This document shows, in pieces, positions 771 to 19,211 of a stretch of DNA of 62,272 bases (position 1 is its first letter; the number at the start of each line of letters is the position of its first letter). The notes beneath the pieces were generated by a model. That model was not told the DNA's origin. It ran no database searches and saw nothing but the letters and a program-made list of their open reading frames with translations. The DNA lies in contig DJAA01000034.1 in assembly GCA_002428085.1 (NCBI GenBank), forward strand, positions 18,984 through 81,255, written 5' to 3'. The position numbers and the translations under genes are program-made. This DNA comes from Sulfurimonas sp. UBA6014. GTDB taxonomy: Bacteria; Campylobacterota; Campylobacteria; Campylobacterales; Sulfurimonadaceae.

Positions 771-1060
771 TGTGCCTCTCAATCCCAAGTAAAGTTGTAA
801 AAATAGACAAAGATAACGGTGTAGCCACAGTCGACACGATGGGCGTTCAAAGAGATGCCAGCCTTGACCTTGTTTCTCATGAAGAGATTCAAGTGGGTGA
901 TTATGTACTGCTTCATATCGGTTTTGTGATGAGTAAGATTGACGAAGCAGACGCGCTTGATAGCCTCGAACTTTACAAAGAAATCATAACGGCTATGAAT
1001 GAAGAGGACAGACTTCAAGCGATACTTGAGTCTGAGAATTGCCCAAATAGAAGTGCATGA
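770..1060 (+). CDS. hypC: Hydrogenase maturation chaperone HypC
   Basis: 96 aa starting MCLSIPSKV (HypC/HupF N-terminal Cys signature). The start overlaps the hypB stop (TAATG). Confidence 0.93.
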   Translation: MCLSIPSKVVKIDKDNGVATVDTMGVQRDASLDLVSHEEIQVGDYVLLHIGFVMSKIDEADALDSLELYKEIITAMNEEDRLQAILESENCPNRSA

Positions 1061-2244: not shown

Positions 2245-2344
2245 CACCATTGAAGCAAAAGACATCGTCTATAACGGCGATTTGAAGAAAAAAGATTTAG
2301 AAGGTTTTGCTAAAACATTTGATGCCAACAAAGGGCACTAGCCC

Positions 2345-2390
2345 CAAATTATCGCAAATTATCCTATTTTAAAAGAAAAATGAGTACAAT
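2345..2390 (+). promoter_or_regulatory. Possible internal promoter for hypE-hypA: tandem direct repeat CAAATTATC x2 (10-nt phasing) followed by the -10-like hexamer TACAAT
   Basis: The repeat copies lie at 2345-2353 and 2355-2363. TACAAT is at 2385-2390, about 35 nt before the hypE ATG. This sits in an unusual 181-nt gap inside an otherwise overlapping hyp operon. Confidence 0.3.
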
Positions 2391-2425
2391 CTTTAATAAC
2401 AGAGATAACTAAAAGGGCAAAGTAA

Positions 2426-3418
2426 ATGACTAAAACAATAAGCTTGGCTTGTGGAAATGGTGGGGAGGAGAATAATGAGCTTATCTCAAAGGTGTTTTAC
2501 AAGGCTTTTAAAAATGAGATTTTAGAAAAAAGTGAAGATGCGGCTATTATTCATGGCGGTGCGCTTGCTTTTTCTACCGATAGTTTTACCGTTTCTCCTT
2601 TGTTTTTTTCGGGTGGCGACATAGGAAAACTTGCAGTTTGCGGGACGTGTAATGACCTTGCCATGATGGGGGCTGCTCCGAAATATTTGACTTGCAGTGT
2701 CATTATTGAAGAGGGTTTTGAGCTTGAGCAGTTAGAACACATCGTTGCGAGCATGAAAAAAGAGCTTAGTATTAACGGTGCGATTGTCGTGAGTGGGGAC
2801 ACAAAAGTTGTCCCTCGCGGGAGTGTTGATAAGATTTTCATCAACACAACAGGCATAGGCGAAGTGCTACAAAAAGGGATAAGTTCGAACAACATTACAG
2901 AAGAAGATGTGATTCTGCTTAACCGTGACATCGGGTGTCATGGCGCGACTATTTTTGCCACGCGGGAGGGAATTGAGATGAGTTCTTCACTTCAAAGTGA
3001 CTGCACATCTTTATTTCCACACGTTCAAGCCTTGATAAATGCGAACATAAAAATCACTGCCATGCGAGATGCTACCCGCGGCGGAGTGAGTGCGGTGCTT
3101 AACGAATGGGCAAAGCAGTCCAATATTTGCATAGAAGTTGAAGAGGAAAAAATTCCCGTGAGTGATGAGGTCAAGGGGATTTGCGAAATGCTTGGTTTTG
3201 AAGCGACAGCTTTAGCAAATGAGGGAACATTTTTACTTGCACTCAAAAAAGAGGATGCAGACGCGGCTTGTGAAATTTTAAGAGCGTTTAATCCACATGC
3301 CCAGATGATAGGCATCGTCACAAACAGACATGCTAAAAAAGTGATACTTAAAAGTGCTTGGGGGACTTCACGATTTTTAGAAACACCTACGGGTGAGCTT
3401 TTGCCGAGGATTTGTTAA
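2426..3418 (+). CDS. hypE: Hydrogenase maturation carbamoyl dehydratase HypE
   Basis: 330-aa PurM/AIR-synthase-like protein ending in PRIC, the HypE C-terminal Cys motif. Located in the hyp cluster. Confidence 0.92.
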   Translation: MTKTISLACGNGGEENNELISKVFYKAFKNEILEKSEDAAIIHGGALAFSTDSFTVSPLFFSGGDIGKLAVCGTCNDLAMMGAAPKYLTCSVIIEEGFELEQLEHIVASMKKELSINGAIVVSGDTKVVPRGSVDKIFINTTGIGEVLQKGISSNNITEEDVILLNRDIGCHGATIFATREGIEMSSSLQSDCTSLFPHVQALINANIKITAMRDATRGGVSAVLNEWAKQSNICIEVEEEKIPVSDEVKGICEMLGFEATALANEGTFLLALKKEDADAACEILRAFNPHAQMIGIVTNRHAKKVILKSAWGTSRFLETPTGELLPRIC

Positions 3419-3759
3419 TGCATGAATATAGCATAGTACAGTCGCTTTTAGATTCGTGTGATGAAAATGCCAGAAAAAACAATGCAACAAAAGTGACAAA
3501 AGTTATCGTCAAAATTGGGGTCATGAGCGGAGTAGAGCCTAGTTTGCTTCAGAGCGCTTTTGATACTTTTAAAGAAAAAACGATTTGCGAGGAAGCGGAG
3601 TTTATTATCAATATGCAAGATGTTTTAGTGCGGTGCAATAGCTGTCATGAAGAGTCAACTTTGCAAAAGTTGGAGTATTGTTGTCCAAAATGTGGGAGCA
3701 CAGACCTTAAAATACTCGATGGCGAAGAGATGTACTTAATGCGTTTAGAGCTCGAGTGA
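3418..3759 (+). CDS. hypA: Hydrogenase nickel insertion protein HypA
   Basis: N-terminus MHEYSI. Zinc motif CNSCHEE...CCPKCGS. The ATG at 3418 overlaps the hypE TAA; the track ORF starts 6 nt upstream at TTG. Confidence 0.9.
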   Translation: MHEYSIVQSLLDSCDENARKNNATKVTKVIVKIGVMSGVEPSLLQSAFDTFKEKTICEEAEFIINMQDVLVRCNSCHEESTLQKLEYCCPKCGSTDLKILDGEEMYLMRLELE

Positions 3760-4554
3760 GCGGCGGTGCTCTTTTACAAAATCATAAGCATTTTGGATGA
3801 CTTGAAATCTGTTTGTGTAAAGTTTGATGACTTCATTGTTTTGATGATAAACGGTGTCAGGATGGTATTTTTTTAGCATATATAAATAGTTCTTCTTCAT
3901 TTGGCTCGGTGTTGATGTATCGCAGATGTTGAGGAGTTTGTAAGATTTTTTCAGTTTTTCTTCGTACATGTGTTCAGCTAATGCGGTGTCTTCTTGATAT
4001 GAGCGCTTAAAACTCAGTCCATAGGTGATGAAATGGATAGGGATGCTTACTATTTTTTTGTTTGATAAGATATTTTTTAGGAGTAAAAAAGCGGCTTTTG
4101 TAGTGATTTTAAGAGTAAAACTTGTTTTTTTAGGACCAAGCCGTATGGCATCTTTAAATATAAATTGAAAATATTTAAAAATCTTTTCATGGTAGTGTGA
4201 GAAAGAGACTAGAATTTCAAGTGTATTGATTTTTTCAATAGTGACTCTAGTCTGCTGCGCAACTTGGGTATTGTTTGAAGTTATGATATGAATGGGCATT
4301 TCATGAGAGGCTATTAATTGGTTTAAAAAAGTGGGACTTGTTAAAGGAAAGGCTTTTTTGTGAATTTTAAAAGCCCAGTTTAGAAGATATTTTTTTTTGA
4401 TTTCTTCACCACTTTCATATAAAATAACACTCATGTTTGAAAAATGCTTGATACTTTTAAAACTTTTTTCAGCAAAAAGCATAAGAGGTTTTAAATGCAA
4501 AGAGTCGTTTTGAAGATTAAAAACAATTGCATTATTTTCAAAAGTAATCAGCAT
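3745..4554 (-). CDS. J-domain protein (C-terminal DnaJ-like J domain; N-terminal ~200 aa unassigned)
   Basis: The C-terminal ~65 aa contain KKNYLYMLKKYHPDTV (HPD tripeptide) and helices typical of a J domain. The 3' end overlaps hypA convergently by 15 nt. Confidence 0.7.
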   Translation of the reverse strand: MLITFENNAIVFNLQNDSLHLKPLMLFAEKSFKSIKHFSNMSVILYESGEEIKKKYLLNWAFKIHKKAFPLTSPTFLNQLIASHEMPIHIITSNNTQVAQQTRVTIEKINTLEILVSFSHYHEKIFKYFQFIFKDAIRLGPKKTSFTLKITTKAAFLLLKNILSNKKIVSIPIHFITYGLSFKRSYQEDTALAEHMYEEKLKKSYKLLNICDTSTPSQMKKNYLYMLKKYHPDTVYHQNNEVIKLYTNRFQVIQNAYDFVKEHRRSLEL

Positions 4555-4617: not shown

Positions 4618-6105
4618 TTAAAACATTTCAAAATCATCTTCATCTTCGGTAATTTCTATTTTATTAAAAATAAGTTCAAATTGTAAGATGGTGCTAAATA
4701 AAGAACTATCCAAATAGTGGATATCATTAACGGCTTGGTCAATAAAGACATTGCGTCTCCAAGTTGATAAATCAAGCAAAATATTTGAGAGATAGAGTTC
4801 GATTTTTTTATGCGTACTTTCATCTATATCTTCTGTTTGTACTGTTTGCAGCAATTCGCCTAAGGAATTGACGGCATACGATAAATCTTCAAACTCAACT
4901 AATAAAGCTATAAAAGTGGCATAGTTTAAAAGTTTCTCAGAGATTTTACCTAGTGCTGCAAAGTTTTTTTCTTCATTGAACTCTTTGATAAGTCCATATA
5001 TATCGTCTTCTATCTCTGCAAGGTCCTCATTTGTTTCTAGAGTATAATCATCTAGATTGGCACTATAATCTTGTGAACTTACAGCTAAACTTTGACGGGA
5101 TTTTTTTAAAACATTCAACTCTTGTTTATTGAGAACTCTTTTTTCTTTGGATGTTTTTTCTATTGTATTTTCATCTTCTGACTTAGTATGTGAAATTTTT
5201 TCTTCAGAAAGAGCTTCAAAAATAGCTTTGTCACTACTGTTTCCTTTACGAGATTTTTTTATAAAATCTTCTAATCGTAAGTTGTAATGATAGATTTTAA
5301 GTTTTTGGTACTCTATGGTGGTGATGTTGTTCAATGTATACATTTTTAAGGATACGTCATTTAAGAATGGTATATCGCTTATGAAAATATTGTAAATGTT
5401 TCTTCCTGCTCCTGCAGAGGCAAGGGAGATTTTATTTATTTTACTGTTTGTGTCAATCTCTGCTAAGCTGCTTATATATCCAGGCTTTGCTTGAAAAAGT
5501 GAGTCAAGGGAAAATTCACTTCCGATGAAGAGATGTTTTTCTTTATTTGTGAGTCTTAAAAATTTTGAATTGGCATATTGCACTTTTTTGCCGTCATAGA
5601 CAATGATTGGATTTGGGCTGTTTTCTAAAAAAGCACTCAAGGTTGCAATGCTTTGTTCATCTTTTTTTCGGTTTTTTTCTACCTCTTGAGAGACTCTTTT
5701 TTCTAAAAAATGATTTAACTCTTCAAGCTGTGTAACATCTTGTCTAAGAGCTAAGTACTCTACAACAGTATTTTGAGAGTCTAAAATAGGGACTATTGTA
5801 ACAGTAACATAGTAACTAGAGCCATCTTTAGCACGATTTTTAATTTTCCCCTTCCATATTTCTTTGGCTTTGATGGTTTTCCATAAATCTTTATAAACTG
5901 CGGCGGAGACGTCAGGATGCCTGACAATATTATGATTTTTGCCAAGCAATTCTTCTTGGGTATATCCCGATATTTTACAAAATTCATCATTTGCAAAAGT
6001 GATTTCACCTTTGAGATTTGTTTTGGAGACAATCGAACCTGCATCTACAGCTTTTTTATACTCTTCTAAAAGTTTCATGTTATTTTTTAGTTCTTCTTTA
6101 TACAT
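4618..6105 (-). CDS. Cytoplasmic signalling protein: Aer/CetB-type PAS + second PAS-like region + Lys/Glu/Ser-rich linker + unassigned C-terminal helical module with acidic ...DDFEMF terminus
   Basis: PAS motif GKNHNIVRHPDVSAAVYKDLWKTIKAKEIWKGKIKNRAKDGSSYYV resembles the E. coli Aer PAS. The last 135 aa align without gaps to the C-terminus of the 6119..7408 product. Confidence 0.75.
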   Translation of the reverse strand: MYKEELKNNMKLLEEYKKAVDAGSIVSKTNLKGEITFANDEFCKISGYTQEELLGKNHNIVRHPDVSAAVYKDLWKTIKAKEIWKGKIKNRAKDGSSYYVTVTIVPILDSQNTVVEYLALRQDVTQLEELNHFLEKRVSQEVEKNRKKDEQSIATLSAFLENSPNPIIVYDGKKVQYANSKFLRLTNKEKHLFIGSEFSLDSLFQAKPGYISSLAEIDTNSKINKISLASAGAGRNIYNIFISDIPFLNDVSLKMYTLNNITTIEYQKLKIYHYNLRLEDFIKKSRKGNSSDKAIFEALSEEKISHTKSEDENTIEKTSKEKRVLNKQELNVLKKSRQSLAVSSQDYSANLDDYTLETNEDLAEIEDDIYGLIKEFNEEKNFAALGKISEKLLNYATFIALLVEFEDLSYAVNSLGELLQTVQTEDIDESTHKKIELYLSNILLDLSTWRRNVFIDQAVNDIHYLDSSLFSTILQFELIFNKIEITEDEDDFEMF

Positions 6106-6118
6106 ATAAAAACCCTTT

Positions 6119-7408
6119 TTAAAAAAATTCTAAATCGTCTTCTTCTTCGGCTATCCCTTCTTCTTTGAAGATGGATTCAATCTGTAAACAAGAACTCAAA
6201 AGAGAAGAATCAAGATAGTGGATGTCGTTCGCCTCTTGGTTGACAAATATATTTACTCTCCAGCTGTTTAAATCTGCTATGAATCCAAGCATGAGCGTTA
6301 CGAGTTTTTTAATTTTATTTTCATCAAGCTTAGAAGATTCTAAATTTGCTAAAAAATTTGCAAGCGAAGCAATGGCATATGAGAGATGTTCAAACTCAAC
6401 GAGTTGTTTTATGACTTCTACATATGTTAAAAATAGTTCTGACATTTTTTGTAAATCTGCAATATCGCATTGTTTTTCAAACGCAAGTAAAGCGATATCT
6501 AGTTCTTCTTCGATAGTCTCAAGGGACTCTATTTTATCCATAAAAGAGATCGCAGTCATCTCTAAGTATTCAATTGCGGTGATTTTATTGAAATGTGTTT
6601 TTGAGAGAATTTCTTTGGCTTGAGTTGGGATTTCTATAATAACTGCAGGTTGTGTGGAGATGACTTGTATCTTAGGCAATTTAAATGATAAAACACCCTC
6701 GTGAAGTACATAGAGGCTATTTTTGCAATGTTTGAGAAGGATACTACGAATAATCGTAGAACTAATAAAATCAAGCGAAGTTTGTGTCACATAAAGATAC
6801 TCATCGTTCTCTTCAATAATAATGGCAAAAGGGTGGTTTGTTTTTAAGAGCCATAAGCCAAGCCCATAGAGTATTCTTACTGTATCACTGATATTAGTTG
6901 CACCATATTCACTTTTGTTCAGTGTGTCGTTCCAAAAAAAGGCAAGAGCTGCCTCAGAGTTGATTGTAAATTTTTTTGAGAGAGGGTAGGCTGTGTCACT
7001 AAAGAGAGAAACCATTTGCGTTTTTTGGATTGGTTTGGAGCGCATAGAGAGGATAGTCATGTAGTTTTTAGCACGCTGAACAAAAAGCTCGCTATCTATG
7101 GGTTTGGTGATGTAATCTTGCGCGCCACTTTGAAGCATGGCATGTTTAGACTTTTCATCATCAAGCGCACTTAGAGCGATTATCATGCTTGCGGGCGAGA
7201 AAGATTTAATCTCTTTAGTAGCTTCAATACCATCGACTTTTGGCATCATGATATCCATAAATATAAGGTCAAAGTTTTTTTCTCTACACTTTAAAATTGC
7301 CTCAGCCCCATCGATGGCTTCTTCAACATTGATATCTTTAATATCTTCAAGAAGAAGATTCACTGTCATTCTATTGTCTTGGTTATCATCCACTATCAAA
7401 ATATTCAT
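6119..7408 (-). CDS. Response-regulator receiver protein with unassigned middle region and the shared C-terminal helical module (...EEDDLEFF terminus)
   Basis: The REC domain is intact: IVDDN acidic pocket, FMDIMMP phospho-Asp site, ALSA, ITKP. No DNA-binding or enzymatic output motif is recognisable. ATGA overlap with the upstream kinase gene. Confidence 0.8.
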   Translation of the reverse strand: MNILIVDDNQDNRMTVNLLLEDIKDINVEEAIDGAEAILKCREKNFDLIFMDIMMPKVDGIEATKEIKSFSPASMIIALSALDDEKSKHAMLQSGAQDYITKPIDSELFVQRAKNYMTILSMRSKPIQKTQMVSLFSDTAYPLSKKFTINSEAALAFFWNDTLNKSEYGATNISDTVRILYGLGLWLLKTNHPFAIIIEENDEYLYVTQTSLDFISSTIIRSILLKHCKNSLYVLHEGVLSFKLPKIQVISTQPAVIIEIPTQAKEILSKTHFNKITAIEYLEMTAISFMDKIESLETIEEELDIALLAFEKQCDIADLQKMSELFLTYVEVIKQLVEFEHLSYAIASLANFLANLESSKLDENKIKKLVTLMLGFIADLNSWRVNIFVNQEANDIHYLDSSLLSSCLQIESIFKEEGIAEEEDDLEFF

Positions 7409-8559
7409 TCTTTTCCCTTTTTAGTTTTAGAGTTTGTAAAGACGAGCTCAAAGTTTGTTCCACCCAAAAGCTGTGAGTCTAGGATGCGATAATTTATGTT
7501 TAAATCATTACATATGAGCTTTAAAAAATAGAGACCTATCCCTGTTCCTTGTGTCTCTCTTTTCATAAGAGAGCTATTTCCCTGTTCGTAAAGATCAAAA
7601 ACTGACTCCTTATCTGCTATCCCTTTTCCATTGTCATGGATACAAATTTTTATATCATTATTGGACTTTTGTATATTGATACTAATCTTGTTGTCGCCGT
7701 ATTTTATCGCATTAGAGAGTATATTGCTCAGAACTTGCTTAACTCTGTATTCATCCGAATAAATTTCGTTTATTTCACTTGTTAAAAAATCTACTTGGAT
7801 ATTTTTTGCTTGAATCAACGATTCAAACTGCTCTAAAAGAGATATGACTAACTTGTTAAGACTAAAGAGTTTTTTATTGTAGTCGAGTTTATTGGATTGA
7901 AGCTTTGATATGTCTAAAATATTATTGACATTATCAAGCATATCATTCGCATTTACAATGATAGATTTTAAAAGCTTTGCAGTTTTTACAGGTTCTAAAA
8001 CTTGTGAATTGACTACTTTGAGATGAAGATACTTTGAAAAATTTATAATGGCATTAAGCGGTGTTTTAAGCTCATGAGTGAACAAAACTAAAAAAGCCTC
8101 TTTGGCGTCATTTATCCGTTTTTCTTCCTCTTTTTTGAGCATATCGGCTTGCATTTTTCGTTTTAAATGAACATAGCTAGTAACATCTTGACGAATGGCA
8201 ATAAATTCTAAAATAGTCCCTTTTTCATCTTGAAAGGGGATAATTATCGTATCTGCTAAAAATGAATTTCCATTTTTGTTCAAATTTTCTACACGACCAC
8301 GCCATATATTCCCTTCAAGAATAGTGTCCCACATCTCTTTGTACATACTTTGAGGATTATTTGGATGTCTAAAAATATTGTGTGATCGTCCCAGTAATTC
8401 TTCGGGAGGATATCCAGAGACAGTACAAAGATTATCGTTTACATACGTGATAATCCCATTTATATCCGCCTTAGAAACAATCGATGCTTCAGTAAGGACT
8501 CTAAAATAGTGACTGTCTTCATGGAGATTATTTATATAATCTTTATTTTTGTATACCAT
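7405..8559 (-). CDS. Soluble PAS-domain sensor histidine kinase (Aer/CetB-type PAS + HisKA + HATPase_c)
   Basis: PAS GRSHNIFRHPNNPQSMYKEMWDTILEGNIWRGRVENLNKNGNSF. H-box FTHELKTPLNAI. N box ILSNAIKYG. G boxes HDNGKGI and GTGIGLYF. Confidence 0.88.
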   Translation of the reverse strand: MVYKNKDYINNLHEDSHYFRVLTEASIVSKADINGIITYVNDNLCTVSGYPPEELLGRSHNIFRHPNNPQSMYKEMWDTILEGNIWRGRVENLNKNGNSFLADTIIIPFQDEKGTILEFIAIRQDVTSYVHLKRKMQADMLKKEEEKRINDAKEAFLVLFTHELKTPLNAIINFSKYLHLKVVNSQVLEPVKTAKLLKSIIVNANDMLDNVNNILDISKLQSNKLDYNKKLFSLNKLVISLLEQFESLIQAKNIQVDFLTSEINEIYSDEYRVKQVLSNILSNAIKYGDNKISINIQKSNNDIKICIHDNGKGIADKESVFDLYEQGNSSLMKRETQGTGIGLYFLKLICNDLNINYRILDSQLLGGTNFELVFTNSKTKKGKE

Positions 8560-9609
8560 TTAAAGCTTTCTCTTCTCTTCGATGAAATCAAGAATTTTTT
8601 GAGGAATATTTTGAAGTGAAGTTTGTATGTCAACACCGCCAAGGTCGTATGCGACCTTAGGCATGCCATACACAACACAACTTTTTTCATCTTGACCTAT
8701 AGTTTTTGCACCAACATTATGCATGTTGCGCATCCCTTTTGCCCCATCACTTCCCATCCCTGTCAAAATAACACCTACAGCATTAGCACCTGCGCATTTG
8801 GCAACTGAGTTAAAAAGGACATCTACTGAGGGGCGGTGTCCACTCACTTTTTCACCGCCTCCAAGTTGCACATAGTATCTATGCCCTGAACGGCGCAAAA
8901 CCATATGTAAATCTCCCGGCGCAATAAGCACCTGACCGATACTCACGCTATCACCATTTTTTGCCTCTTTTACCTCTACTTGACACAAAGAGTTAAGGCG
9001 TTGTGCAAATTGTCCTGTAAAATTCGCAGGCATATGTTGGACAATGATGATTCCAGGACTATTTCTAGGGAGTTGTATCAAAACATCTTTGAGTGCTTCT
9101 GTTCCCCCAGTGGATGCTCCGATGGCTACGATTTTTTGCGTTGTCTCTGAGAGTGCTCCATGATAGGTAAGCGGTTTTATTGGTGGTGTATCGGTGGATT
9201 TTATTTGTATTTTGGCACGTGCGGCAGATTTTACTTTTGCTAAAAGCTCCTCGCGAATCTCATCTGAGCCATCATAAATATTGGAGTGTGGTTTAGCCAC
9301 AAAATCAATCGCACCCGCTTCAAGCGCGTCAAGCGTTGTTTTTGCCCCTTTTTGGGTTAAAGATGAAACCATAACAACAGGCAGTGGCATGAACTGCATA
9401 AGTTTTTTTACAAAAGTTATGCCGTCCATGCGAGGCATTTCTACATCCAGACAAATAACATCGGGTTTTGATTTGAGAATTTTATCCCGTGCTACGTAGG
9501 CATCGACAGCTGTTTCAACACTGCTTATGTCGGGGTCTTTTGACAATATATCACTTAAAACCGCTCGAGCCGTAGCACTGTCATCAACTATCAAGACCTT
9601 GATTCCCAT
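8560..9609 (-). CDS. cheB: Chemotaxis response regulator protein-glutamate methylesterase CheB
   Basis: Receiver domain (VDDSATAR, DVEMPRMDG) plus methylesterase motifs GASTGG, HMPANFT and GMGSDG. Confidence 0.93.
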   Translation of the reverse strand: MGIKVLIVDDSATARAVLSDILSKDPDISSVETAVDAYVARDKILKSKPDVICLDVEMPRMDGITFVKKLMQFMPLPVVMVSSLTQKGAKTTLDALEAGAIDFVAKPHSNIYDGSDEIREELLAKVKSAARAKIQIKSTDTPPIKPLTYHGALSETTQKIVAIGASTGGTEALKDVLIQLPRNSPGIIIVQHMPANFTGQFAQRLNSLCQVEVKEAKNGDSVSIGQVLIAPGDLHMVLRRSGHRYYVQLGGGEKVSGHRPSVDVLFNSVAKCAGANAVGVILTGMGSDGAKGMRNMHNVGAKTIGQDEKSCVVYGMPKVAYDLGGVDIQTSLQNIPQKILDFIEEKRKL

Positions 9610-10073
9610 TATTCACTCTCTTTTATATATTTGAGCATCACTTTGCCTGTATCACTGATCATTAAAATGCGTCTGCCTTGTGTGCCACCAACATCTTGTG
9701 CGGTAATGGGTATTTTGTATTCGTTCAAAACCTCTTTGGCAATGACGATGTTTTTACGTCCAACCATCATATCTTCATGCGCGATTGTATCTATGACATT
9801 ACCGCCGCCAAAAATTTTGGCTTCCATGTTGTTGAGTTTACAACCGACGTTGAGCATCCCCTCGACAAGTCGGTGGATGGCGATATTTCCATATTTGGGA
9901 CTTTGGAGTCCATTTCCGTTCCACAACGGCACCAAATAATGGTTCATCCCGCCAATCATCTCCACTTTGTCGTAAATGCATACAGAAACACATGAGCCCA
10001 AAATGGTACTTATTTCAGTCGGTCTAGCTCCAATGTAAAACTCACCGACATGAATGAATTTTTTAATAAGCAT
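9609..10073 (-). CDS. cheD: Chemoreceptor glutamine deamidase CheD
   Basis: 154-aa CheD-family protein with the LGSCVSVCIYD catalytic Cys region. One-nt start/stop overlaps with both neighbours. Confidence 0.88.
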   Translation of the reverse strand: MLIKKFIHVGEFYIGARPTEISTILGSCVSVCIYDKVEMIGGMNHYLVPLWNGNGLQSPKYGNIAIHRLVEGMLNVGCKLNNMEAKIFGGGNVIDTIAHEDMMVGRKNIVIAKEVLNEYKIPITAQDVGGTQGRRILMISDTGKVMLKYIKESE

Positions 10074-10966
10074 TAAAACTCCATCATACCACTGTCTGAG
10101 GATTCTTCAAAAAATTCATCTGAACCAAGTCCCTCCGAGACAGATAAACTCGCTTCATCTTTCTGAGCTATTTTTACTAAAAAGACAGTTTTATCATCTT
10201 CACTAAAATGATCAATAGAGCCATCAAGAGACTCAACGATTTCTTTAACAACACTCAATCCAAGACCCAAACCTTGCCCTGGTCGCGTTTTCCCTGTGTT
10301 GTGTTTGTAGAAACGGTTATAAATATTTTTACTGTGATCCGCATATACTCCTTCACCAAAATCTTCAACTCGTATAATATAATCACTTCCTTCTTGCGCA
10401 AATACAATATTTACATCTGCATCTGGATACGAATATTCACAAGCATTTGAGAGGAGATTGAGCAAAATAAGATAAAGTTTTTGCCCATCTGTGACCATTT
10501 TTTCTAGCATCTTATTTTCTACTTTTATATGCAATGATTTTTCTTTTATAAGATGCTCAAAATAGTTTATTGCCTCTTGCGCAATATCTTCAGGGGTGAT
10601 GCGTGCATATGCATTTCCCATCTCGCCGTACTCTATTTCAGAAGCGGCAAAGATATTTTTGAGACTAAAGTCCAGATACGTAAGCTCACTTCGCATCATC
10701 GAACCGATGGCATCAAGACGTGTAGTGTCCACATCTTTTTTGATTTTTCTAGAGAGGCTCAGAAGTGAAGAGAGCGGATTGTTGAACTCATTTTTGATGA
10801 GGGATAAAAAGTAGCTTTTTGCGGCTTCAACTTCTTTGCTACGTTCATTCATTTCAAGAAGTTTTTTGGTCATAAATTCCATTTCAGCGATTGAAGCACT
10901 TTTCTCTTCAAACCTTCTTCCTATCTCTTTTAAAAGCGCTTGGTCACTCATGTTGAATATTTCCAT
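10073..10966 (-). CDS. Histidine-kinase-like protein lacking the phospho-acceptor His (DHp-like helix + intact-looking HATPase_c), acidic ...SGMMEF terminus
   Basis: The H-box position reads FLSLIKNEFNNPL, with Asn codon 10790-10792 where His is expected. N box LLSNACEYS. G1 EDFGEG. G2 GQGLGLGLS. No TM segment or sensor domain. Confidence 0.75.
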   Translation of the reverse strand: MEIFNMSDQALLKEIGRRFEEKSASIAEMEFMTKKLLEMNERSKEVEAAKSYFLSLIKNEFNNPLSSLLSLSRKIKKDVDTTRLDAIGSMMRSELTYLDFSLKNIFAASEIEYGEMGNAYARITPEDIAQEAINYFEHLIKEKSLHIKVENKMLEKMVTDGQKLYLILLNLLSNACEYSYPDADVNIVFAQEGSDYIIRVEDFGEGVYADHSKNIYNRFYKHNTGKTRPGQGLGLGLSVVKEIVESLDGSIDHFSEDDKTVFLVKIAQKDEASLSVSEGLGSDEFFEESSDSGMMEF

Positions 10967-10975
10967 TTTCTTTCC

Positions 10976-11800
10976 TTATTGTTTCATATAGATTGATGAT
11001 CTAACTAACTTTAAATTTTTAACACTTGGTGGAATCGACTCAGAGTGCCCGATAAAAAGTAATCCGCCAGTTTGCAAAAGCTTTGTAAGGTGGACATTTA
11101 TCTGAGTTTGTATCACTTTATCAAAATAAATCATGACATTGCGACAAAAAATGATGTCGATAGGATTGGTAAACATGTTGTAGTTCCCATAGACTAGATT
11201 ATATTTGCGAAAAGTAATCATTTTTTTTATAGAATCATTGACGATAAATTCTTTTGCGATTGGATTGTTTCTCAGAGTAAAATATTTTTTTATGAGGCTA
11301 GTTGATAATCCTTCCATAGATTTTTGAGAATAAATTCCCTGCATCGCCTTTTTTAAAATATCTTCAGAGATATCTGTTGCCAATATTTTAATATCCCATG
11401 ATTCAATATTTGGGATATGCTCATGTAAAAATATAGCAATACTATACGGCTCTTCACCACTGGATGAGGCACTTGACCAGATGCGTAACTTTTTCTTTTC
11501 TTTTTTTAAAAGAGTATTTTTGACATACTCTTGAAAATAAACCCATTGCTCTTTCTCGCGAAAAAAAGAGGTAACGTTTGTAGTGATGGCATCTTCAAGC
11601 TCAAAGTCGGCAGTGCTACCACTTTGATGAATAAAATATTCATAAAGCTCCATATAGCTCTTTAACCCTTTTTTAGTCACGAGCTTACTAAGTCTCGATT
11701 GCATCATGGAGACTTTTTGATCATTTAAAGAGATGCCTAATCTCTCATGAATAAGCTCTCTAAAGAGGTTGAACTCTTTTTTTTTTAATTCTAGCAACAT
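10976..11800 (-). CDS. cheR: Chemotaxis protein methyltransferase CheR
   Basis: CheR motifs RIWSSASSSGEEPYSIAI and IIFCRNVMIYFD. 274 aa with no extra TPR domain. Confidence 0.92.
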   Translation of the reverse strand: MLLELKKKEFNLFRELIHERLGISLNDQKVSMMQSRLSKLVTKKGLKSYMELYEYFIHQSGSTADFELEDAITTNVTSFFREKEQWVYFQEYVKNTLLKKEKKKLRIWSSASSSGEEPYSIAIFLHEHIPNIESWDIKILATDISEDILKKAMQGIYSQKSMEGLSTSLIKKYFTLRNNPIAKEFIVNDSIKKMITFRKYNLVYGNYNMFTNPIDIIFCRNVMIYFDKVIQTQINVHLTKLLQTGGLLFIGHSESIPPSVKNLKLVRSSIYMKQ

Positions 11801-11803
11801 TTT

Positions 11804-13921
11804 TTAATGGACTTTTATCTTAAAAAGTGCATCTACGTTGAGAATAAGAGCAATCTCTCCATTTCCCATAACTGCACCTCCCGTAATACCTTCTAGTTTA
11901 GCAAGCGCTTTTCCTAAGGGTTTGATAACTACCTGCTGACGCCCCACTAAATCATCAATAAGGAGTGCATATTTGCCATCTTCACTCTCGACGCAAATGA
12001 GAGTTGACTCCCAAATTTCTGGTCGTTTGTCGTTAATATCTAGTATCTCATTGAGGCGCATAACAGGAATCATCTCGCCGCGAAGGTCTACAAACTCCCC
12101 TTTGTTCCTTGCCGTATGAACAATATCTTTTGAAGGGATAAAAGATTCAACAACACTTAACGTAGGGATAATAAATATATCTCCCGCACTTTTAACAATC
12201 ATGCCATCAATAATCGCCAAAGTAAGCGGAAGTAAAATCGTAAAAACAGAGCCTTCCCCCATTTTTGACTCAATTTCTACCTTTCCTTGAAGTTTTTCGA
12301 TAGAGGAGCGAACAACATCAAGTCCAACTCCACGACCTGAAATATCGCTAATCACATCCGCAGTAGAAAACCCTGCTTGCATGATGAGTCCATATATTTG
12401 CTGGTCGCTTAAAACATCCTCTTTACTTATGATACCTCGCTCTAGTGCTTTGGCATAGACTTTATCTTTGTTAATGCCGCGTCCATCATCACGTACTTCA
12501 ATAGCGATATTTCCCGCTTTATGATACGCTCTTAAAAGAACATGCCCTTTTGGATTTTTACCTGCTGCTGCACGCTCTTGAACGGTCGCTTCTATCCCAT
12601 GGTCAATAGCATTTCTAATGATGTGAATGAGTGGGTCAGAGAGTGAGTCAACCATAGTTTTATCAACCTCAGTCTCTTCTCCTTCTATGCGCAACTCTAT
12701 ATCTTTGTTCACTTTTTTAGAAGCATCTCGCGCAACACGTTTCATTTTGTCAAATGTGTCATGAACGGGGACCATTCTCAGCGCCATAACACGGTTTTGG
12801 ATAAGACGGGTGATTTTGCTAAGGTTTTCAATGGTCCTTGTTAGCTGAGGGCTGTTGAGACTTTTGATCTCTTCATTTTCAGATACAAAGTTTTGAGTGA
12901 TGACCATCTCGCCCACAGAATCAAAAAGTTCGTCTAATTTTTGTGTATCTATTTTTATGAAAGAGCGTTTATCTTCTTTGCGACGATGTTCAAACTCTAT
13001 AGGCTCTTCTTTTGTGTTTGCTTGAGTTTTCTCTTGTATCAAAGGAGCTATTTCATCGGCTACAACGGTTGCTTCATGGAGAACAACTCTTTCTTCTGGA
13101 AGTGCTTCATTGTCGTTTTGTGTAGCTTCTATCAAAGTGATAGAAAACTCTTGAGGTTCAACAAATAAAAATACCTCTTCAATCGAGTCAACACTCTCCT
13201 CGCTTTCTAAAAAAAGCTCAACATGACTCCAGTGACTTATCTCAACATCAAAATTTTCTATTGTTTGGATGTGAGGAACACTCCATCTAGATTGGAGTAT
13301 TTGTCCTTTTTCACTTAAGAGACCAAAGAAGCGTCCATGGTCATATCCCCTATGATAAATATCGTTATCAAGTTTTAAAACTATTTTATATAAAAATTTT
13401 CCAAGTTGCGCTACTGGCTCTTGGATAGTTTTTTCTTCTATTTTTTTTGGTTCATCTATAAATGTGAAAGGTTCATCTTTATTAGAAAACTCTTGAGCAA
13501 CATTACTCATATCTGCAAAAGGGGTCTCTTGAGTTGATTTGTTCAGAAGAAGCTGTTTGATAGATTCAAGGGTAGAGTGGTAGTTTGGAGGAACACCCTC
13601 ATCTCCACTTACTTCTAGCCAGAGTGTTGCTTTTATGACATCTACAGCACTTAGAAAAATATCTATTGCATAAGCTGGCACACTCACTGTGCTATCGCGG
13701 TAGTGATCTAAAACATCTTCAAAAAGATGGACAAATCCGCCCAAACGGGTAAAACCAAAAGAGTTGGCACTTCCTTTAAGTGTATGAACACCGCGAAAGA
13801 GCTCATTGAGTAACTCTTTATTTTGTGAGTCCTCTTCATAATTGATAATATCTATATCGAGTTTCTCAATGATTTCAGTTGCTTCTTCGATAAATATAGA
13901 ACGTATTTCTTCTTTAGTCAT
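11804..13921 (-). CDS. cheA: Chemotaxis histidine kinase CheA (no fused receiver)
   Basis: P1 HPt FRGVHTLKGSANSFG. N box IIRNAIDHGIE. G boxes RDDGRGI and GRGVGLDVV. C-terminal CheW-like P5. I place the start at MTKEEIRS (ATG 13921), which overlaps the upstream stop as ATGACTAA; the track ORF extends 11 codons further. Confidence 0.92.
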   Translation of the reverse strand: MTKEEIRSIFIEEATEIIEKLDIDIINYEEDSQNKELLNELFRGVHTLKGSANSFGFTRLGGFVHLFEDVLDHYRDSTVSVPAYAIDIFLSAVDVIKATLWLEVSGDEGVPPNYHSTLESIKQLLLNKSTQETPFADMSNVAQEFSNKDEPFTFIDEPKKIEEKTIQEPVAQLGKFLYKIVLKLDNDIYHRGYDHGRFFGLLSEKGQILQSRWSVPHIQTIENFDVEISHWSHVELFLESEESVDSIEEVFLFVEPQEFSITLIEATQNDNEALPEERVVLHEATVVADEIAPLIQEKTQANTKEEPIEFEHRRKEDKRSFIKIDTQKLDELFDSVGEMVITQNFVSENEEIKSLNSPQLTRTIENLSKITRLIQNRVMALRMVPVHDTFDKMKRVARDASKKVNKDIELRIEGEETEVDKTMVDSLSDPLIHIIRNAIDHGIEATVQERAAAGKNPKGHVLLRAYHKAGNIAIEVRDDGRGINKDKVYAKALERGIISKEDVLSDQQIYGLIMQAGFSTADVISDISGRGVGLDVVRSSIEKLQGKVEIESKMGEGSVFTILLPLTLAIIDGMIVKSAGDIFIIPTLSVVESFIPSKDIVHTARNKGEFVDLRGEMIPVMRLNEILDINDKRPEIWESTLICVESEDGKYALLIDDLVGRQQVVIKPLGKALAKLEGITGGAVMGNGEIALILNVDALFKIKVH

Positions 13922-14180
13922 GGTGTATCCAATGCAAACTGCCATAATTGGCAAGTTTTAGTATTCCATCGTCTATTGCGGGAATGCGAATTTGAGGTTT
14001 GCTTTTTTTGATACTAAATAAAAGAGCAAAAAGGGAAGAAGAGACAAAAATCTCTTTCTCCCCAATCACTTCTATAGATTCAATATATTCTAAACGGGGT
14101 TGAATAAACTTTTTTAGCTCGATTACTTCACCCAAATCCATATCTAGTTCTATCTCAAGAACATCGCCATCTATTGTCAT
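13914..14180 (-). CDS. Small STAS-like (SpoIIAA/anti-sigma-antagonist-like) protein
   Basis: 88 aa. The beta-alpha pattern and the FVSSSLFALL segment resemble the STAS ...fiDSSGl... region. Abuts the mcp stop and overlaps the cheA start. Confidence 0.5.
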   Translation of the reverse strand: MTIDGDVLEIELDMDLGEVIELKKFIQPRLEYIESIEVIGEKEIFVSSSLFALLFSIKKSKPQIRIPAIDDGILKLANYGSLHWIHHD

Positions 14181-16136
14181 TTAGAACTCCTTCAAGTCCT
14201 CATCATCAAGTGGAAAAACGTCATGATTGCTCTTTGAAGGTTTTTTAGACGCGAGAGCTTTTTTAGGTTGTGCAAAGCCCATACGCTTCGTTGTTTTTTG
14301 CGTGCGACCTGTTGGTCTCTCTGAGTGTCCTGCACTTGTAATACCAACCATTGCTGCGATAACTGCCACCATATCTTGCATAGAGACAGCTTGCGCGTTG
14401 AGCTCTTCAGATGCAGCTGCGGCTTCTTCAGATGTTGCAGCATTTTGTTGTGTTACTTGGTCGATATTTCCCATAGCTTGCGCGATTTGGCTCATCCCTT
14501 CACTTTGTTCTTTTGTAGAGATAGAGATTTCACTGATAAGATTTGAAGTCTTTTTGATTCGCTCATCAATATTTCCAAATGCCTCATTTGTTTTCTTTGC
14601 TACATCTAAACCATTTTTGATTTGTTTGATTGATTGCTCGATGATCTCTGAAGTCTCTGTCGCAGCATTTGCTGAGCGTTGAGCAAGACCTTTAACTTCA
14701 TCAGCAACAACGGCAAAACCTAATCCATGCTCACCTGCACGTGCCGCTTCAACAGCTGCATTAAGGGCTAGAAGTTTTGTTTGTGATGCTATCTCATCAA
14801 TAGTTTTGATGATTTTTGCGATTCTCTCACTTGAACTGTTTATCTCTTGCATAGCAGCCATCAGTTCCGTTCCACGTGCAAAACCTTCAGATGCGGCTTC
14901 TTTGGTATCTTTTGCCAAGATATCCGCTTCACGAGAGTTGTCTGCATTTTGGTTGTTGATGGCAGTTGCTTGCTCTACCGTCGCACTTACCTCTTCTATA
15001 GAGCTTGCTTGTTGGGAGGCACCCTCTGCTAAAGCTTGAGAAGATTCAGATATTTCACCCGCCGCACTTACGACTTGTGAGTTCGCACTTGTGATGGACT
15101 CAACTGCACGAATAATAGGAACTGTGATACTTCTAATGAGGTAAACAGCCAAAGAGGCACCAACAATCAACGCTATGATTAAACCTACAATCATGATGTA
15201 AGAAGATGCAGCCAAACTCTCAGCTGATTCTTTTGAAATTTCAGCAGTTTGACCCATCGCAACTCTCGCTGTTTCTTGTGCTGCTTCTAAAACTTCGCTG
15301 CCTACACTTGTACGCTTTTTAGCGAGTTCTTCAAGCATAATCCAACTTTTGATAAAGTTGTCAAGCGCTTCTTTATACTCGTTTGCAGCCATTTCTGTCT
15401 CTTTAATCGTCTCAAGATCTTCTGCTCTAAAGGTTATTTTGGTAAGAGCACCAAACAACTGTTCCATTTTAGGAAAGTTTTTTTGTGCATCGTAAATGAT
15501 AGACGGCTCTCGAAGTGCCTGTGATTTGAATGCTTTGATTCTTGTGTCATTCCCTATATCGATAATATCATTGACGATTGATATTTTTTGCAATCTCTCT
15601 TTAAGTTTTTCAGGAGACTGTTTGGAAGCAATCTCACTGTTCATCATTTTTGTCTGGTTGAGTAAAAAATCATTACAACTTGCCATATACTTCGCCGCAC
15701 CTTTGTCAAGGTCGCCTCTATAAGTATTGAGCTTGCCTAGAAGAGTTTCTGTATCTGTAATAAGTGCATCGTACTCTAGAGTTTTTATTCTTGCTTTTTT
15801 CTCAAGTTCAGTGAGCTTTGGCAATGAATATTTTTCAGCAAGTGCTTTAGCCTCATCAAGATGGAATTTTATATCACTTAAATACTGGCGTCCTTCCACG
15901 AGAAATTTCTTCTCTTCACTCAGACCATACCCTCTGATGGCATACATAGTTAAAAGAGCGTGTCTCTCGACATTATTTCCTACTCCCAACTCTGGCACAT
16001 ATATATTTGCTAGCTGGTGTGAACCTTCCTCAACGTTTTTCATGTTAATGATAGCCATTGAACCCAAAATAACGGTGATCAAAAGGAGTAAAACAAACCC
16101 TATACTAATCTTATATGTTAATGTCAAATTTTTCAT
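14181..16136 (-). CDS. Methyl-accepting chemotaxis protein (two TM segments, ~290-aa helical periplasmic domain)
   Basis: Hairpin tip [34 protein letters not shown]. Methylation-type sites [16 protein letters not shown] and AASEELNA. Long low-complexity C-terminal linker ending DDEDLKEF. Confidence 0.93.
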
Positions 16137-16138
16137 CT

Positions 16139-16660
16139 TTACACTCCTGCTTTTTCTGTTTTATTTGATTTACGCTCTTCGAAAGAACCGATTTGTGTCA
16201 GTTCGTCATCCTCAAAAATCTTTTCCATGTCAAGAATCAAAATAACATCTGATCCAACTTCTGCAACACTCTTGATAAAAGTGGTGTCAATATGTGAGCC
16301 AAATTTTGGTGGTTCATTTAAATCTTTTTCACTAAATGTGAGAACATCCTCAACTCGGTCCACAATAAAGCCTATGTTTACCCCACTCACTTCATTGATG
16401 ATAATTGCAGTGTTCATATCATGCTCTTTTTTTTCTATGCCAAACTTTACGCGAATGTCTACTATGGGGATAATAGAACCACGAAGATTGACAACCCCTT
16501 CTACGAAAGGCGGAGTTCTAGGTACATGCGTGATTTTCATCATTGCAATAATTTCGTTTATGTGAGAAATATCTATTCCATACTGTTCATTCTTAACAAA
16601 GAAACTCAAATAACGATGTCTGCTTCCGCCTTCTTCACCTTCTAAATCTTTTGTTCTCAT
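16139..16660 (-). CDS. cheW: Chemotaxis coupling protein CheW
   Basis: 173-aa single CheW-like domain ([21 protein letters not shown]..., [13 protein letters not shown]). Confidence 0.9.
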
Positions 16661-17046
16661 TAAATCCCCAATACCATTTTTACAGCTTTAATCAGCTTTT
16701 CATCACTAAATGGCTTTACCATCCACCCCGTAACCCCTATCTCTTTGCCTCTTTCTTTCATAACAGGAGAACTCTCTGTTGTTAAAATCAGAATAGGTTT
16801 ATTTTTAAAACGTTCATCTGCTTTTAATGTTGCTGCGAGGTCAAGTCCATTCATCTGCGGCATATTTATATCACTGATGAGCATGTCGAAATTTTCATTT
16901 CCGCTCATCAAAAGATTTAGCAGCTCTGCAGGATTTTGATAAAGTGCTAAAATAACGCCCCCATTTTGCACCATCTCATCGAGCGCCATTTGAGCGGTAG
17001 CCAAAATAGTTTTTGAATCATCTACTAAAATAACTTTCTTTGCCAA
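16660..17046 (-). CDS. cheY: Chemotaxis response regulator CheY
   Basis: 128-aa stand-alone receiver (LVDDS, ISDINMPQMNG, LTTE, VKPF). First gene of the operon. Confidence 0.9.
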   Translation of the reverse strand: MAKKVILVDDSKTILATAQMALDEMVQNGGVILALYQNPAELLNLLMSGNENFDMLISDINMPQMNGLDLAATLKADERFKNKPILILTTESSPVMKERGKEIGVTGWMVKPFSDEKLIKAVKMVLGI

Positions 17047-18104: not shown

Positions 18105-19211
18105 ATGTTTACAGATAGTGTCGAATTAACAGTCTCATCAGGAAAAGGTGGACAAGGTTGTGTAGCATTTCGCCGTGAAAAATTTGTTTTACAAGGTGGT
18201 CCAAACGGCGGTGATGGCGGTGCTGGCGGAGATATTATTTTTCGATGTGACAACAATACACATACCCTCTCGCATTTTCAAAGAAAAATGCATATTAAAG
18301 CTGACAATGGCATGCAGGGTGATACTTCTCGAATGACAGGAAAATCTGGAGCAGACAAAGTGATTATTGTTCCTCCAGGGACACAGATTATTGATGTAGA
18401 AACAGGTGATATTTTATTTGACATGCTCAAAGATTCGCAAGAAGAGAGATTTGTCAAAGGTGGAAGAGGTGGACTTGGAAACTTTCACTTTAAATCATCA
18501 ACAAATCAAAGACCAACCTATGCACAACCTGGTGAGCAAGGGATTACCAAGCTTATAAAATTAGAATTAAAGCTTATAGCCGATGTTGGTCTTGTTGGTT
18601 TTCCAAATGTTGGCAAATCTACACTTATCTCTACAGTCTCAAACGCACGTCCTGAGATTGCAAATTATGAATTTACAACGCTGACTCCAAAACTAGGTCA
18701 AGTCAATATTGGTGATTTTGAGTCTTTTATCATGGCAGATATTCCAGGTATTATTGGTGGCGCCCATGAAGGGAAAGGTCTTGGAATTCAATTTTTAAGA
18801 CATATCGAAAGAACAAAAATACTTCTTTATATGATAGATTTAGCCTCGTACAGAGATTTGAAAGAGCAGTACGAAACGCTTAAAAATGAAATTTTAGCAT
18901 TTTCACAAATCATGAGCACCAATAAATACGCCATAGCACTTACAAGAGCTGATGTTGTTCCACCTGAAGAAATTTCAGATTTAGTAAGTAGTTTTTTGGA
19001 TTTGGTTGGAGTCAAAGCTAAGGAAAAAAGTGAATATGATTTTGATGCAACAATCCCTTATTTTATTCAAGAGAGTGCAGATGAGACATTAGGGTATGAT
19101 AAATCTCTCCCTTATTTTGTAGTGCCTATATCTTCTGCTACAACGAGAAATATAGAACCTCTCAAATATGCACTCTTTAATCTAGTTCGTACCGATAGAA
19201 AAACTTACTAG
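18105..19211 (+). CDS. obg: GTPase Obg/CgtA
   Basis: Glycine-rich Obg fold (GGPNGGDGGAGGDI) and G1 motif GFPNVGKST. Confidence 0.95.
   Translation: MFTDSVELTVSSGKGGQGCVAFRREKFVLQGGPNGGDGGAGGDIIFRCDNNTHTLSHFQRKMHIKADNGMQGDTSRMTGKSGADKVIIVPPGTQIIDVETGDILFDMLKDSQEERFVKGGRGGLGNFHFKSSTNQRPTYAQPGEQGITKLIKLELKLIADVGLVGFPNVGKSTLISTVSNARPEIANYEFTTLTPKLGQVNIGDFESFIMADIPGIIGGAHEGKGLGIQFLRHIERTKILLYMIDLASYRDLKEQYETLKNEILAFSQIMSTNKYAIALTRADVVPPEEISDLVSSFLDLVGVKAKEKSEYDFDATIPYFIQESADETLGYDKSLPYFVVPISSATTRNIEPLKYALFNLVRTDRKTY

Follow-up and report, generated by a model that had tools for sequence, protein, structure and literature searches.

The known class of bacterial histidine pseudokinases is very small (DivL and PsmA, the latter reported recently), and in DivL the residue that stands in for the phospho-acceptor histidine is a tyrosine. 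Among chemosensory kinases, CheA3 and CheA4 of Rhodobacter sphaeroides provide a precedent for phosphorylation in trans. The bifunctional HisKA kinases CrdS, HK853 and EnvZ keep their histidine and switch between kinase and phosphatase states. In CrdS and HK853, a Thr or Asn located four positions after the histidine (H+4) is needed for phosphatase activity, and in CrdS and EnvZ the histidine itself is largely dispensable for it; CrdA~P has a half-life of 0.7 min in the presence of wild-type CrdS, 2.6 min with H371A, 47.6 min with N375A and 53.5 min if no enzyme is added (PMC3510030). The phosphatase CheC of Bacillus is bound by CheD, phospho-CheY strengthens this binding and an adaptation loop results (PMC3513319). 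Here we describe a protein whose closest known counterparts are among these systems. It is encoded in a chemosensory gene cluster of Sulfurimonas sp. UBA6014, within a stretch of 62,272 nucleotides (contig DJAA01000034.1, positions 18,984 to 81,255 of the forward strand) that is referred to below as the window. The product of the gene at 10073..10966 on the minus strand, which we call pHK, has the fold of a histidine kinase and lacks the acceptor histidine; it belongs to a large family whose invariant partner is CheD.

The first-pass annotation of the window had described this gene as coding for a kinase-like protein devoid of its phospho-acceptor His, a sensor domain and a transmembrane segment. 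All sequence strings quoted there are present in pHK, namely SYFLSLIKNEFNNPLSSLL (residues 51-69), LLSNACEYS (171-179), EDFGEG (201-206), GQGLGLGLS (230-238) and the C-terminal GMMEF. The suggested profile alignment gave a mixed result: HATPase_c (residues 160-265, 3.7e-18) is the only Pfam domain in the protein, and Pfam HisKA does not match the window pHK at E<=0.1. Many pHK relatives do carry a precomputed PF00512 match. NCBIfam kinase models (PnpS, PhoR) align with residues 42-264, all far below the family cut-offs, and PF13581 (HATPase_c_2) scores 17.9 bits against a cut-off of 27.4. In phmmer comparisons, HK853 (2c2a, 3dge) aligns over residues 40-259 with an E-value of 2e-16, while DivL (4q20) gives a poorer value of 1.3e-7. 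An AlphaFold2 monomer model built on 58 homologues contains a long helix (residues 8-77), a turn and a second helix (81-113) that make up a DHp hairpin, followed by an alpha/beta domain (120-267); the ATP lid (208-233) is disordered and so is the tail (279-297; predicted local distance difference test score, pLDDT, <50). Foldseek matches the model best to complexes of HK853 with RR468 (E about 1e-16) and to DivL, a pseudokinase. As annotated at first, neither a sensor domain nor a membrane segment is present. pHK is a soluble homologue of HK853/PhoR-type histidine kinases that consists of a DHp hairpin and a GHKL domain. Its parts are as follows.

10073..10966, minus strand: pHK gene; 297 amino acids, His-less HisKA/HATPase_c protein; stop codon at 10073-10075
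10628..10945, minus strand: N-terminal helix and DHp hairpin (residues 8-113; AlphaFold2, Foldseek), with no sensor domain, transmembrane segment or His
10775..10795, minus strand: degenerate H-box K58-N-E-F-N-N-P64, with E at H+1, N at H+4 and P at H+5
10790..10792, minus strand: codon AAT of Asn59, at the position of the phospho-acceptor His (sequence, HK853 alignment)
10166..10609, minus strand: CA (GHKL ATP-binding) domain, residues 120-267 (Pfam, AlphaFold2)
10430-10471, 10346-10369 and 10253-10279, minus strand: N box, G1 box and G2 box of the CA domain
10076..10132, minus strand: acidic tail, residues 279-297, ..GSDEFFEESSDSGMMEF, disordered, with a G-(N/D)-E-F-x-F motif and a terminal x-Phi-x-E-F peptide

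The gene starts with ATG preceded by an AAGGA ribosome-binding site. Residues 20-25 of the N-terminal helix read EEKSAS (10892-10909, minus strand), which fits the classical receptor methylation consensus EExxA(S/T).

Since phmmer pairs the pHK segment liKNEFNNPL with niSHELRTPL of HK853, Asn59 occupies the position of His260. The initial reading of codon 10790-10792 as a His-to-Asn replacement, with no other His in the DHp helix, is borne out, as residues 1-137 of pHK contain no His at all. Conservation of the Asn in orthologues had been set beforehand as the check on this reading. A word-indexed search yielded 478 pHK relatives, of which 58, down to 49% identity, were aligned; N59, E60, F61, N62 and P64 are invariant in this alignment, with Asn at column 59 in 58/58 sequences. 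Both the word-indexed search and a DNA-pattern scan are potentially biased, the contig scan towards Asn because of its SL[IV]KNEFN pattern, so conservation was assessed with a profile search that used no word index and covered 1.84 billion representative proteins. Among 235 profile hits of 270-330 amino acids, the acceptor column holds Asn in 233, Thr in one and Ser in one. Asn is also found in 121/121 further relatives of a Geobacter-type member (the Geobacterales branch). As a control for canonical histidine kinases, 57 domains of large kinases from the same hit list have His in the acceptor column in 98% of cases. No column of the pHK family exceeds 50% His, and no DHp column exceeds 24%.

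These counts bear on two trivial explanations. A shifted alignment, with another DHp His as the true acceptor, is ruled out by the His-free residues 1-137 and the lack of a conserved His column. Gene decay, a strain-specific mutation or a sequencing error would require a change of only one base (AAT instead of CAT), but Asn is present in essentially all of ~355 relatives from several phyla and the remainder of pHK is under strong purifying selection; we regard this explanation as exceedingly improbable and, given the Asn of the orthologues, ruled out for the His codon. The acceptor site has not decayed to random residues, which points to selection for Asn rather than drift. Because the acceptor His is replaced by Asn across a large multi-phylum family, pHK is not expected to autophosphorylate at the usual site.

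The His-to-Asn proteins constitute a conserved, widespread and uncharacterised family that spans Campylobacterota, Geobacterales, Chrysiogenota, Bacteroidota and Magnetococcales. It is present in cultured organisms (Sulfurospirillum arcachonense DSM 9755, Desulfurispirillum indicum S5, Trichlorobacter lovleyi and Geobacter spp.), and one search returned >2,400 clusters at 90% identity with E<=1e-20, a count that may include ordinary kinases. The nearest relatives of the window protein come from Sulfurimonas metagenome-assembled genomes (MAGs; 86% amino acid identity). pHK has the histidine kinase fold, a substituted acceptor His and conservation of the substitution in orthologues, the features by which histidine pseudokinases are recognised. 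Pipelines name pHK relatives "sensor histidine kinase", "HAMP domain-containing histidine kinase", "KdpD" or "PhoR", which is misleading; pHK should not be annotated as a sensor histidine kinase, because it lacks the acceptor His that defines that family. Mo et al. 2022 (mBio, PMC9239204) include a gene "K" in their chemosensory gene orders of Campylobacterota, and this is very probably the pHK gene; it is listed there only as a histidine kinase, and the searchable text of that paper is silent on the missing His, the family and the coupling to CheD. In the literature searched, we found no description of a CheD-associated His-less kinase family.

The residues that surround the lost acceptor fall into a retained and a substituted set. 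E60 (H+1) is kept in 97-99%, N63 (H+4) in 97-98% and P64 (H+5) in 100% of the family, and the nucleotide boxes retain N170 and N174, D202, G204 and G206, F219, and G232, G234, G236 and L237, with the N, G1, F and G2 boxes kept at 85-100%. The nucleotide pocket is thus under selection in its adenine, Mg and glycine elements. The E60-x-x-N63 pair, though kept in the family, equally corresponds to the ordinary HisKA E-x-x-T/N motif. Substitutions affect H-1, where the canonical Ser is replaced by Lys or Arg, H+3, where the canonical Arg (88%) is replaced by Asn (N62), and H+4, where Asn (97-98%) replaces the canonical Thr (88%). Asn at H+4 is a minority yet functional variant of the HisKA phosphatase residue (for the role of Thr/Asn at this position, see Willett & Kirby 2012, PMC3510030). 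In the alpha2 motif LLDxSR, D107 has become Ala and the R/K at position 110 (88% canonical) has become Glu. Finally, the N-box Lys, present in 98% of canonical kinases, is Glu177 in pHK, and 59-99% of family members, according to branch, have Glu at this position. The phosphotransfer site has thereby lost three surrounding positive charges (the H+3 Arg, the alpha2 R/K and the N-box Lys). The ATP-binding domain had been described as intact and catalytically competent. Its N, G1, F and G2 boxes and nucleotide motifs are indeed kept, but the domain is not fully intact, because the N-box Lys is Glu177, and with H+3 Arg replaced by Asn and alpha2 Arg/Lys by Glu its catalytic competence is uncertain. 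The lost basic residues and the strictly kept H+4 Asn favour a phosphatase or a phospho-receiver-binding protein over a trans-kinase. Residues D8, L11, E14, R18, L36 and N40 of the N-terminal helix are also strongly conserved.

The genomic context of pHK was mapped by tblastn in 55 Campylobacterota loci from Sulfurimonas, Sulfuricurvum, Sulfurospirillum (including S. arcachonense DSM 9755) and "Helicobacteraceae" MAGs. The core order is cheY-cheW-(MCP)-orf88-cheA-cheR-pHK-cheD-cheB, where MCP is a methyl-accepting chemotaxis protein gene. The genes of a PAS-domain histidine kinase (PAS-HK) and of a protein with a REC domain vary in position, being upstream, downstream, divergent or missing. 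cheD lies immediately downstream of pHK in all 58 Campylobacterota loci counted as having both genes, 55 of them with a gap of <=23 nucleotides. We measured the spacing in 59 pHK-cheD pairs (55 in Campylobacterota loci, three in loci of distant members and that of the window): the distance from pHK stop to cheD start is -1 nucleotide in 25/59 pairs and <=23 nucleotides in 57/59. In the window, the TAA stop of pHK and the ATG of cheD share one base (TAATG), so that cheD is predicted to be translationally coupled to pHK. The window CheD, aligned to Thermotoga maritima CheD (2F9Z), keeps the catalytic triad T21, C27 and H44.

Distant family members from Chrysiogenota, Bacteroidota, Geobacterales, Magnetococcales and metagenomes were sampled by exact-protein look-up, and in 9/9 cheD is directly downstream. 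Five of the nine (Desulfurispirillum indicum, a Bacteroidetes MAG and three metagenome contigs) have the arrangement cheR-pHK-cheD(-cheB) or cheA-pHK-cheD-cheB. The Magnetococcales pair (L062) is at a contig end, and at least three distant members form stand-alone pHK-cheD pairs, around which no further che gene is seen:

L058, 3041-5721: stand-alone pair; neighbours are an EAL-HDOD gene and a hemerythrin gene
L061, 3596-7164: stand-alone pair; neighbours are HDOD-HD and GGDEF genes
L066, 8001-9463: stand-alone pair; neighbours are housekeeping genes only

The HDOD, EAL and GGDEF neighbours suggest a link to c-di-GMP signalling or an action at a distance on receptors. Because the adjacency persists, including in the stand-alone pairs, pHK-cheD is a conserved two-gene module for which the che cluster is one of the contexts, and CheD, rather than the products of the neighbouring REC, PAS or CheY genes, appears to be the invariant partner of pHK. 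The picture is therefore broader than the single che operon considered at first: a large multi-phylum family with CheD as the fixed partner. Unexplained non-che genes that adjoin cheD in Geobacter clusters were noted by Tran et al. 2008 (PMC2577667). One Bacteroidetes locus with the order cheR-pHK-cheD-cheB (L063) also codes for a 209-amino-acid protein (12918-13547) with sub-threshold matches to CheC (20.8 bits vs 22) and CheX, and has a SpoIIE gene and a HATPase-only gene upstream.

In the window, the open reading frame list and Pfam define a twelve-gene chemosensory cluster on the minus strand, transcribed in the order cheY, cheW, MCP, orf88, cheA, cheR, pHK, cheD, cheB, PAS-HK, REC protein and PAS protein. 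The location of pHK between cheR and cheD, proposed at first from the letters alone, is supported by Pfam matches on both sides. The other genes are listed in the order of transcription.

16660..17046, minus strand: cheY (Pfam, synteny), first gene of the cluster
16139..16660, minus strand: cheW (Pfam, synteny)
14181..16136, minus strand: MCP (Pfam MCPsignal), with a tail peptide of the same type as the pHK tail
13914..14180, minus strand: orf88, small protein upstream of cheA, kept in 35 loci
11804..13954, minus strand: cheA, complete, with Hpt, dimerisation, HATPase_c and CheW-like domains (Pfam)
10976..11800, minus strand: cheR (Pfam CheR and CheR_N), immediately upstream of pHK
9609..10073, minus strand: cheD (Pfam CheD, 1.6e-26), downstream of pHK
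8560..9609, minus strand: cheB, REC and methylesterase (Pfam, synteny), downstream of cheD
4618..8559, minus strand: block of accessory genes (PAS-HK, REC protein, PAS protein)
7405..8559, minus strand: PAS-HK, a PAS-HisKA-HATPase_c kinase (Pfam) with a genuine His and a normal H-box, FTHELKTPL
6119..7408, minus strand: REC protein, REC and a novel helical C-terminal domain, ends DLEFF
4618..6105, minus strand: PAS protein, PAS and the same novel domain as the REC protein, ends DFEMF

No CheC, CheX or CheZ domain was found by Pfam in any protein of the window's cluster. The mechanically called cheA reading frame has a TTG start and a 41-nucleotide overlap with orf88, and homologue alignments (tblastn) begin at residues 3-12; the true cheA start is probably Met12, near 13921. 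Genes for hydrogenase maturation (HypD and a HypE-like AIR-synthase-related protein), for a DnaJ-domain protein (3745-4554, minus strand) and for an Obg GTPase flank the cluster, with flanking-gene coordinates 1057-3418 and 18105-19211, both on the plus strand; GC composition is ~31-42%.

orf88 is probably the "STAS-only" gene of this cluster type. A gene of this kind is named STAS in the legend of Fig 1B of Mo et al. 2022 (PMC9239204), and the equivalent cluster L064 contains a Pfam-positive STAS gene. orf88 itself has no Pfam match and, in a profile search, no PDB match. An invariant Ser lies in its SSSLF motif, which on visual inspection looks like the phosphorylation loop of STAS proteins. 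The REC and PAS proteins share a C-terminal domain of ~150 amino acids (6119-6601 and 4618-5100, minus strand) with an invariant D-I-H-Y-L-D-S-S-L-L-S-S-C motif. AlphaFold2 confidently predicts a bundle of 5-6 helices for it (pLDDT 87), and no Pfam match, no significant Foldseek/PDB fold match and no Hpt were found. It appears to be a domain for output or docking, so far undescribed, that belongs to this cluster type.

The acidic end of pHK had been noted at first as shared with other proteins of the cluster, and the comparison of loci agrees: among cluster proteins, an acidic disordered end with an x-Phi-x-x-F peptide is found only in the MCP, pHK, the REC protein and the PAS protein.

MCP: ..FPLDExDLKEF in 32/37 MCPs across loci; in the window DLKEF, 14181-14225, minus strand
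pHK: ..NEFMFDDxxxMVEF across loci; in the window GMMEF, 10076-10132, minus strand
REC protein: ..EDDLE(L/F)F across loci; in the window DLEFF, 6122-6160, minus strand
PAS protein: ..EDxLELF across loci; in the window DFEMF, 4621-4660, minus strand

The same pattern holds in Desulfurispirillum, and the MCP of the equivalent Bacteroidetes cluster ends with GYEKF, a canonical aromatic pentapeptide. The x-Phi-x-x-F tails are probably a variant of the pentapeptide that tethers CheR or CheB, here placed on non-receptor proteins. In the family as a whole, the tail element is G-N-x-F-x-F followed by acidic residues (120/121 in the Geobacterales branch), and the terminal Phe is lost in the Geobacterales branch, where proteins end with K or A. 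We infer that the inner G-N-x-F-x-F may act with a partner common to the whole family, and the terminal peptide with CheR or CheB as its partner in che clusters. As a marker of the che context the terminal Phe is imperfect, for the stand-alone L066 protein ends with F and the Geobacterales branch with K/A. The window CheR aligns without gaps with the pentapeptide-binding CheR of Salmonella typhimurium, with a beta-subdomain of the same length, and has three residues more than the pentapeptide-independent CheR1 of Pseudomonas aeruginosa; the inserted residues are not Gly-rich. In F8 clusters elsewhere, a pentapeptide MCP is paired with such a CheR (PMC11253619). Indirect hints of a possible F8-type cluster (Wuichet-Zhulin classes) in the window are its CheD, the STAS-like gene, the C-terminal peptide of the MCP and the insertion in CheR.

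The first-pass annotation had left three possibilities: trans-phosphorylation of another protein, an ATP-dependent scaffold and a pseudokinase regulator. The sequence by itself would not settle the choice. Because pHK has a histidine kinase fold and no His, keeps E-x-x-N-P, has lost the basic residues, is coupled to CheD and carries a receptor-like tail, we tentatively prefer a model, which might well turn out to be wrong, in which it is a kinase-dead module, competent as a phosphatase or able to bind a phospho-receiver, and acts together with CheD in a manner similar to CheC. The pHK dimer would dock a phosphorylated receiver, that of the cluster CheY or the REC domain of CheB, on DHp helix alpha1. 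E60-x-x-N63, together with the Asn at the former His site, would position a hydrolytic water in the way bifunctional HisKA kinases do when in their phosphatase state, and the loss of His would block both kinase activity and back-transfer. The nucleotide-binding domain would be kept as a conformational cofactor and not as a phosphodonor. Produced in stoichiometric amounts with CheD, pHK would bind it and, like CheC in Bacillus and Thermotoga, link how available or active CheD is at receptors to the phospho-CheY level. Within che clusters, the acidic tail x-Phi-x-E-F, which is like the receptor ..DLKEF, would additionally tether pHK to the docking site that reads the receptor tail, probably on CheR or CheB.

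The likeness to CheC (with CheX and FliY) lies in the gene being directly upstream of, and by prediction translationally coupled to, cheD, and perhaps in the helix-borne Glu-x-x-Asn pair, the type of catalytic motif seen in CheC and CheX and equally the ordinary HisKA motif; the folds are unrelated, pHK has no CheC or CheX Pfam match and, unlike CheC, it has an ATP-binding domain. With CrdS, HK853 and EnvZ it shares the scaffold and the E/D-x-x-T/N-P motif, its H+4 Asn being equivalent to N375 of CrdS, whereas those enzymes have the His and pHK has neither His nor sensor domain. Several points weigh against the CheC-like model. The cofactor role of nucleotide would be argued from analogy alone, and a pure phosphatase has no obvious need for strictly kept G1, G2 and N boxes. 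The stand-alone pairs L058, L061 and L066 have no adjoining receiver gene. The CheC/CheX-like protein of L063 is encoded beside pHK and CheD, so pHK is not a strict replacement of CheC. Lastly, the PleC H610A mutant loses both activities, phosphatase included (cited in PMC3510030).

The main rival, which we consider doubtful but serious, makes pHK a non-catalytic DivL-like pseudokinase or scaffold whose ligands are nucleotide and a partner, be it CheD, a phospho-receiver or the receptor array, and which acts by sequestration or allostery with no phosphatase chemistry, CheD being, for example, released or held in response to the nucleotide state or to the amount of CheY~P. DivL ranks with the best matches in both structure and sequence, every locus pairs pHK with CheD whereas receiver genes are not always nearby, and the strongly conserved N-terminal helix residues and the G-N-x-F-x-F tail look like binding surfaces. 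On the other hand, the near-invariant Glu at H+1, Asn at H+4 and the whole nucleotide pocket suggest chemistry over mere binding, and the residue that replaces His in DivL is Tyr, not Asn. DivL is the textbook case of a His-less kinase that reads a phospho-receiver in reverse, and both proteins have the DHp and CA fold, a replaced acceptor His and the appearance of having been repurposed to read or regulate (PMC4211667). Differences are equally clear: DivL of Caulobacter crescentus (4q20) is large, anchored in the membrane and equipped with multiple PAS domains, acts in the cell cycle on CckA and DivK, has no CheD link or C-terminal peptide, and is not closer to pHK in sequence than are ordinary kinases such as HK853, so that no specific kinship is indicated. 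A split kinase that uses ATP to phosphorylate another polypeptide in trans, resembling CheA or Rhodobacter CheA3/CheA4, would account for nucleotide boxes kept at 85-100% and for the H+1 Glu, a residue required for the kinase activity of CrdS. Its proposed acceptors are the PAS-HK in a heterodimer, the P1 domain of CheA, the REC and PAS proteins with the novel domain, and the Ser of orf88, and the window cluster does contain a genuine PAS-HK, while the motif DIHYLDSS with its invariant His occurs in two of its proteins. pHK is like CheA, CheA3 and CheA4 in having a His-less dimerisation four-helix bundle next to a GHKL domain in a chemosensory cluster; it differs in being a class I HisKA homologue, not a CheA paralogue, and in having no P1, P5 or fixed acceptor. 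None of the candidate acceptors is a fixed partner, as the PAS-HK, REC and PAS proteins are mobile or missing and are absent from the stand-alone pairs, and the N-box Lys is Glu, with two further basic residues near the transfer site lost. The shared helical domain was rejected as an Hpt-type acceptor, since it has no Hpt match and the REC/PAS genes are not fixed neighbours, and orf88 as a STAS substrate, since it has no Pfam or PDB match and is absent from the stand-alone pairs. Some family members score weakly on HATPase_c_2 (RsbW/SpoIIAB type), but, unlike RsbW/SpoIIAB, pHK has a DHp domain, the STAS-like orf88 is three genes away and missing from stand-alone pairs, and L063 has HATPase-only and SpoIIE genes of its own to serve a STAS protein. 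Overall, we judge a trans-kinase to be unlikely.

Two further readings centre on the adaptation enzymes. As a soluble receptor mimic, pHK would be a substrate or decoy tethered to CheR/CheB by its tail, bound, deamidated or methylated at a receptor-like site, and would buffer CheR, CheB or CheD. The tail is of the same type as that of the cluster MCP, the gene lies between cheR and cheD-cheB, and E20-E21-K-S-A24-S25 fits EExxA(S/T), of which the MCP has EEVSAT and QQNAAT; by our estimate, the motif is expected by chance in ~1-2% of proteins of the same size. Conservation of the EExxAS sequence is, however, restricted to the Campylobacterota branch (distant family: E21 51%, A24 12%, S25 23%), the Geobacterales branch lacks the terminal Phe, and the conserved nucleotide pocket and E-x-x-N are left unexplained, which makes this reading very unlikely. 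It would be a long shot to suppose that pHK and CheD form an autonomous two-protein switch, operating also outside che clusters, in which the CheD amidase site reads or edits N59, N62 and N63 with nucleotide gating access; CheD would bind the H-box helix as a receptor mimic or convert Asn to Asp. If true, this would be a new post-translational switch on a kinase scaffold, and besides receptors and CheC, CheD would have in pHK a second class of substrate or partner.

The function of CheD outside the CheC-CheD systems of Bacillus and Thermotoga is poorly understood, and a partner with a histidine kinase fold would explain CheD regulation in many clusters that have no CheC. What is new in pHK is a protein of the pseudokinase/HisKA-phosphatase kind with a new partner and context, for which we infer the mechanism, and the family would be an abundant addition to a class so far represented by DivL and PsmA. 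pHK would add a type of signal-termination or adaptation device to chemotaxis, and it would be a natural phosphatase-only HisKA protein in which the phosphatase mechanism could be studied with no interfering kinase activity.

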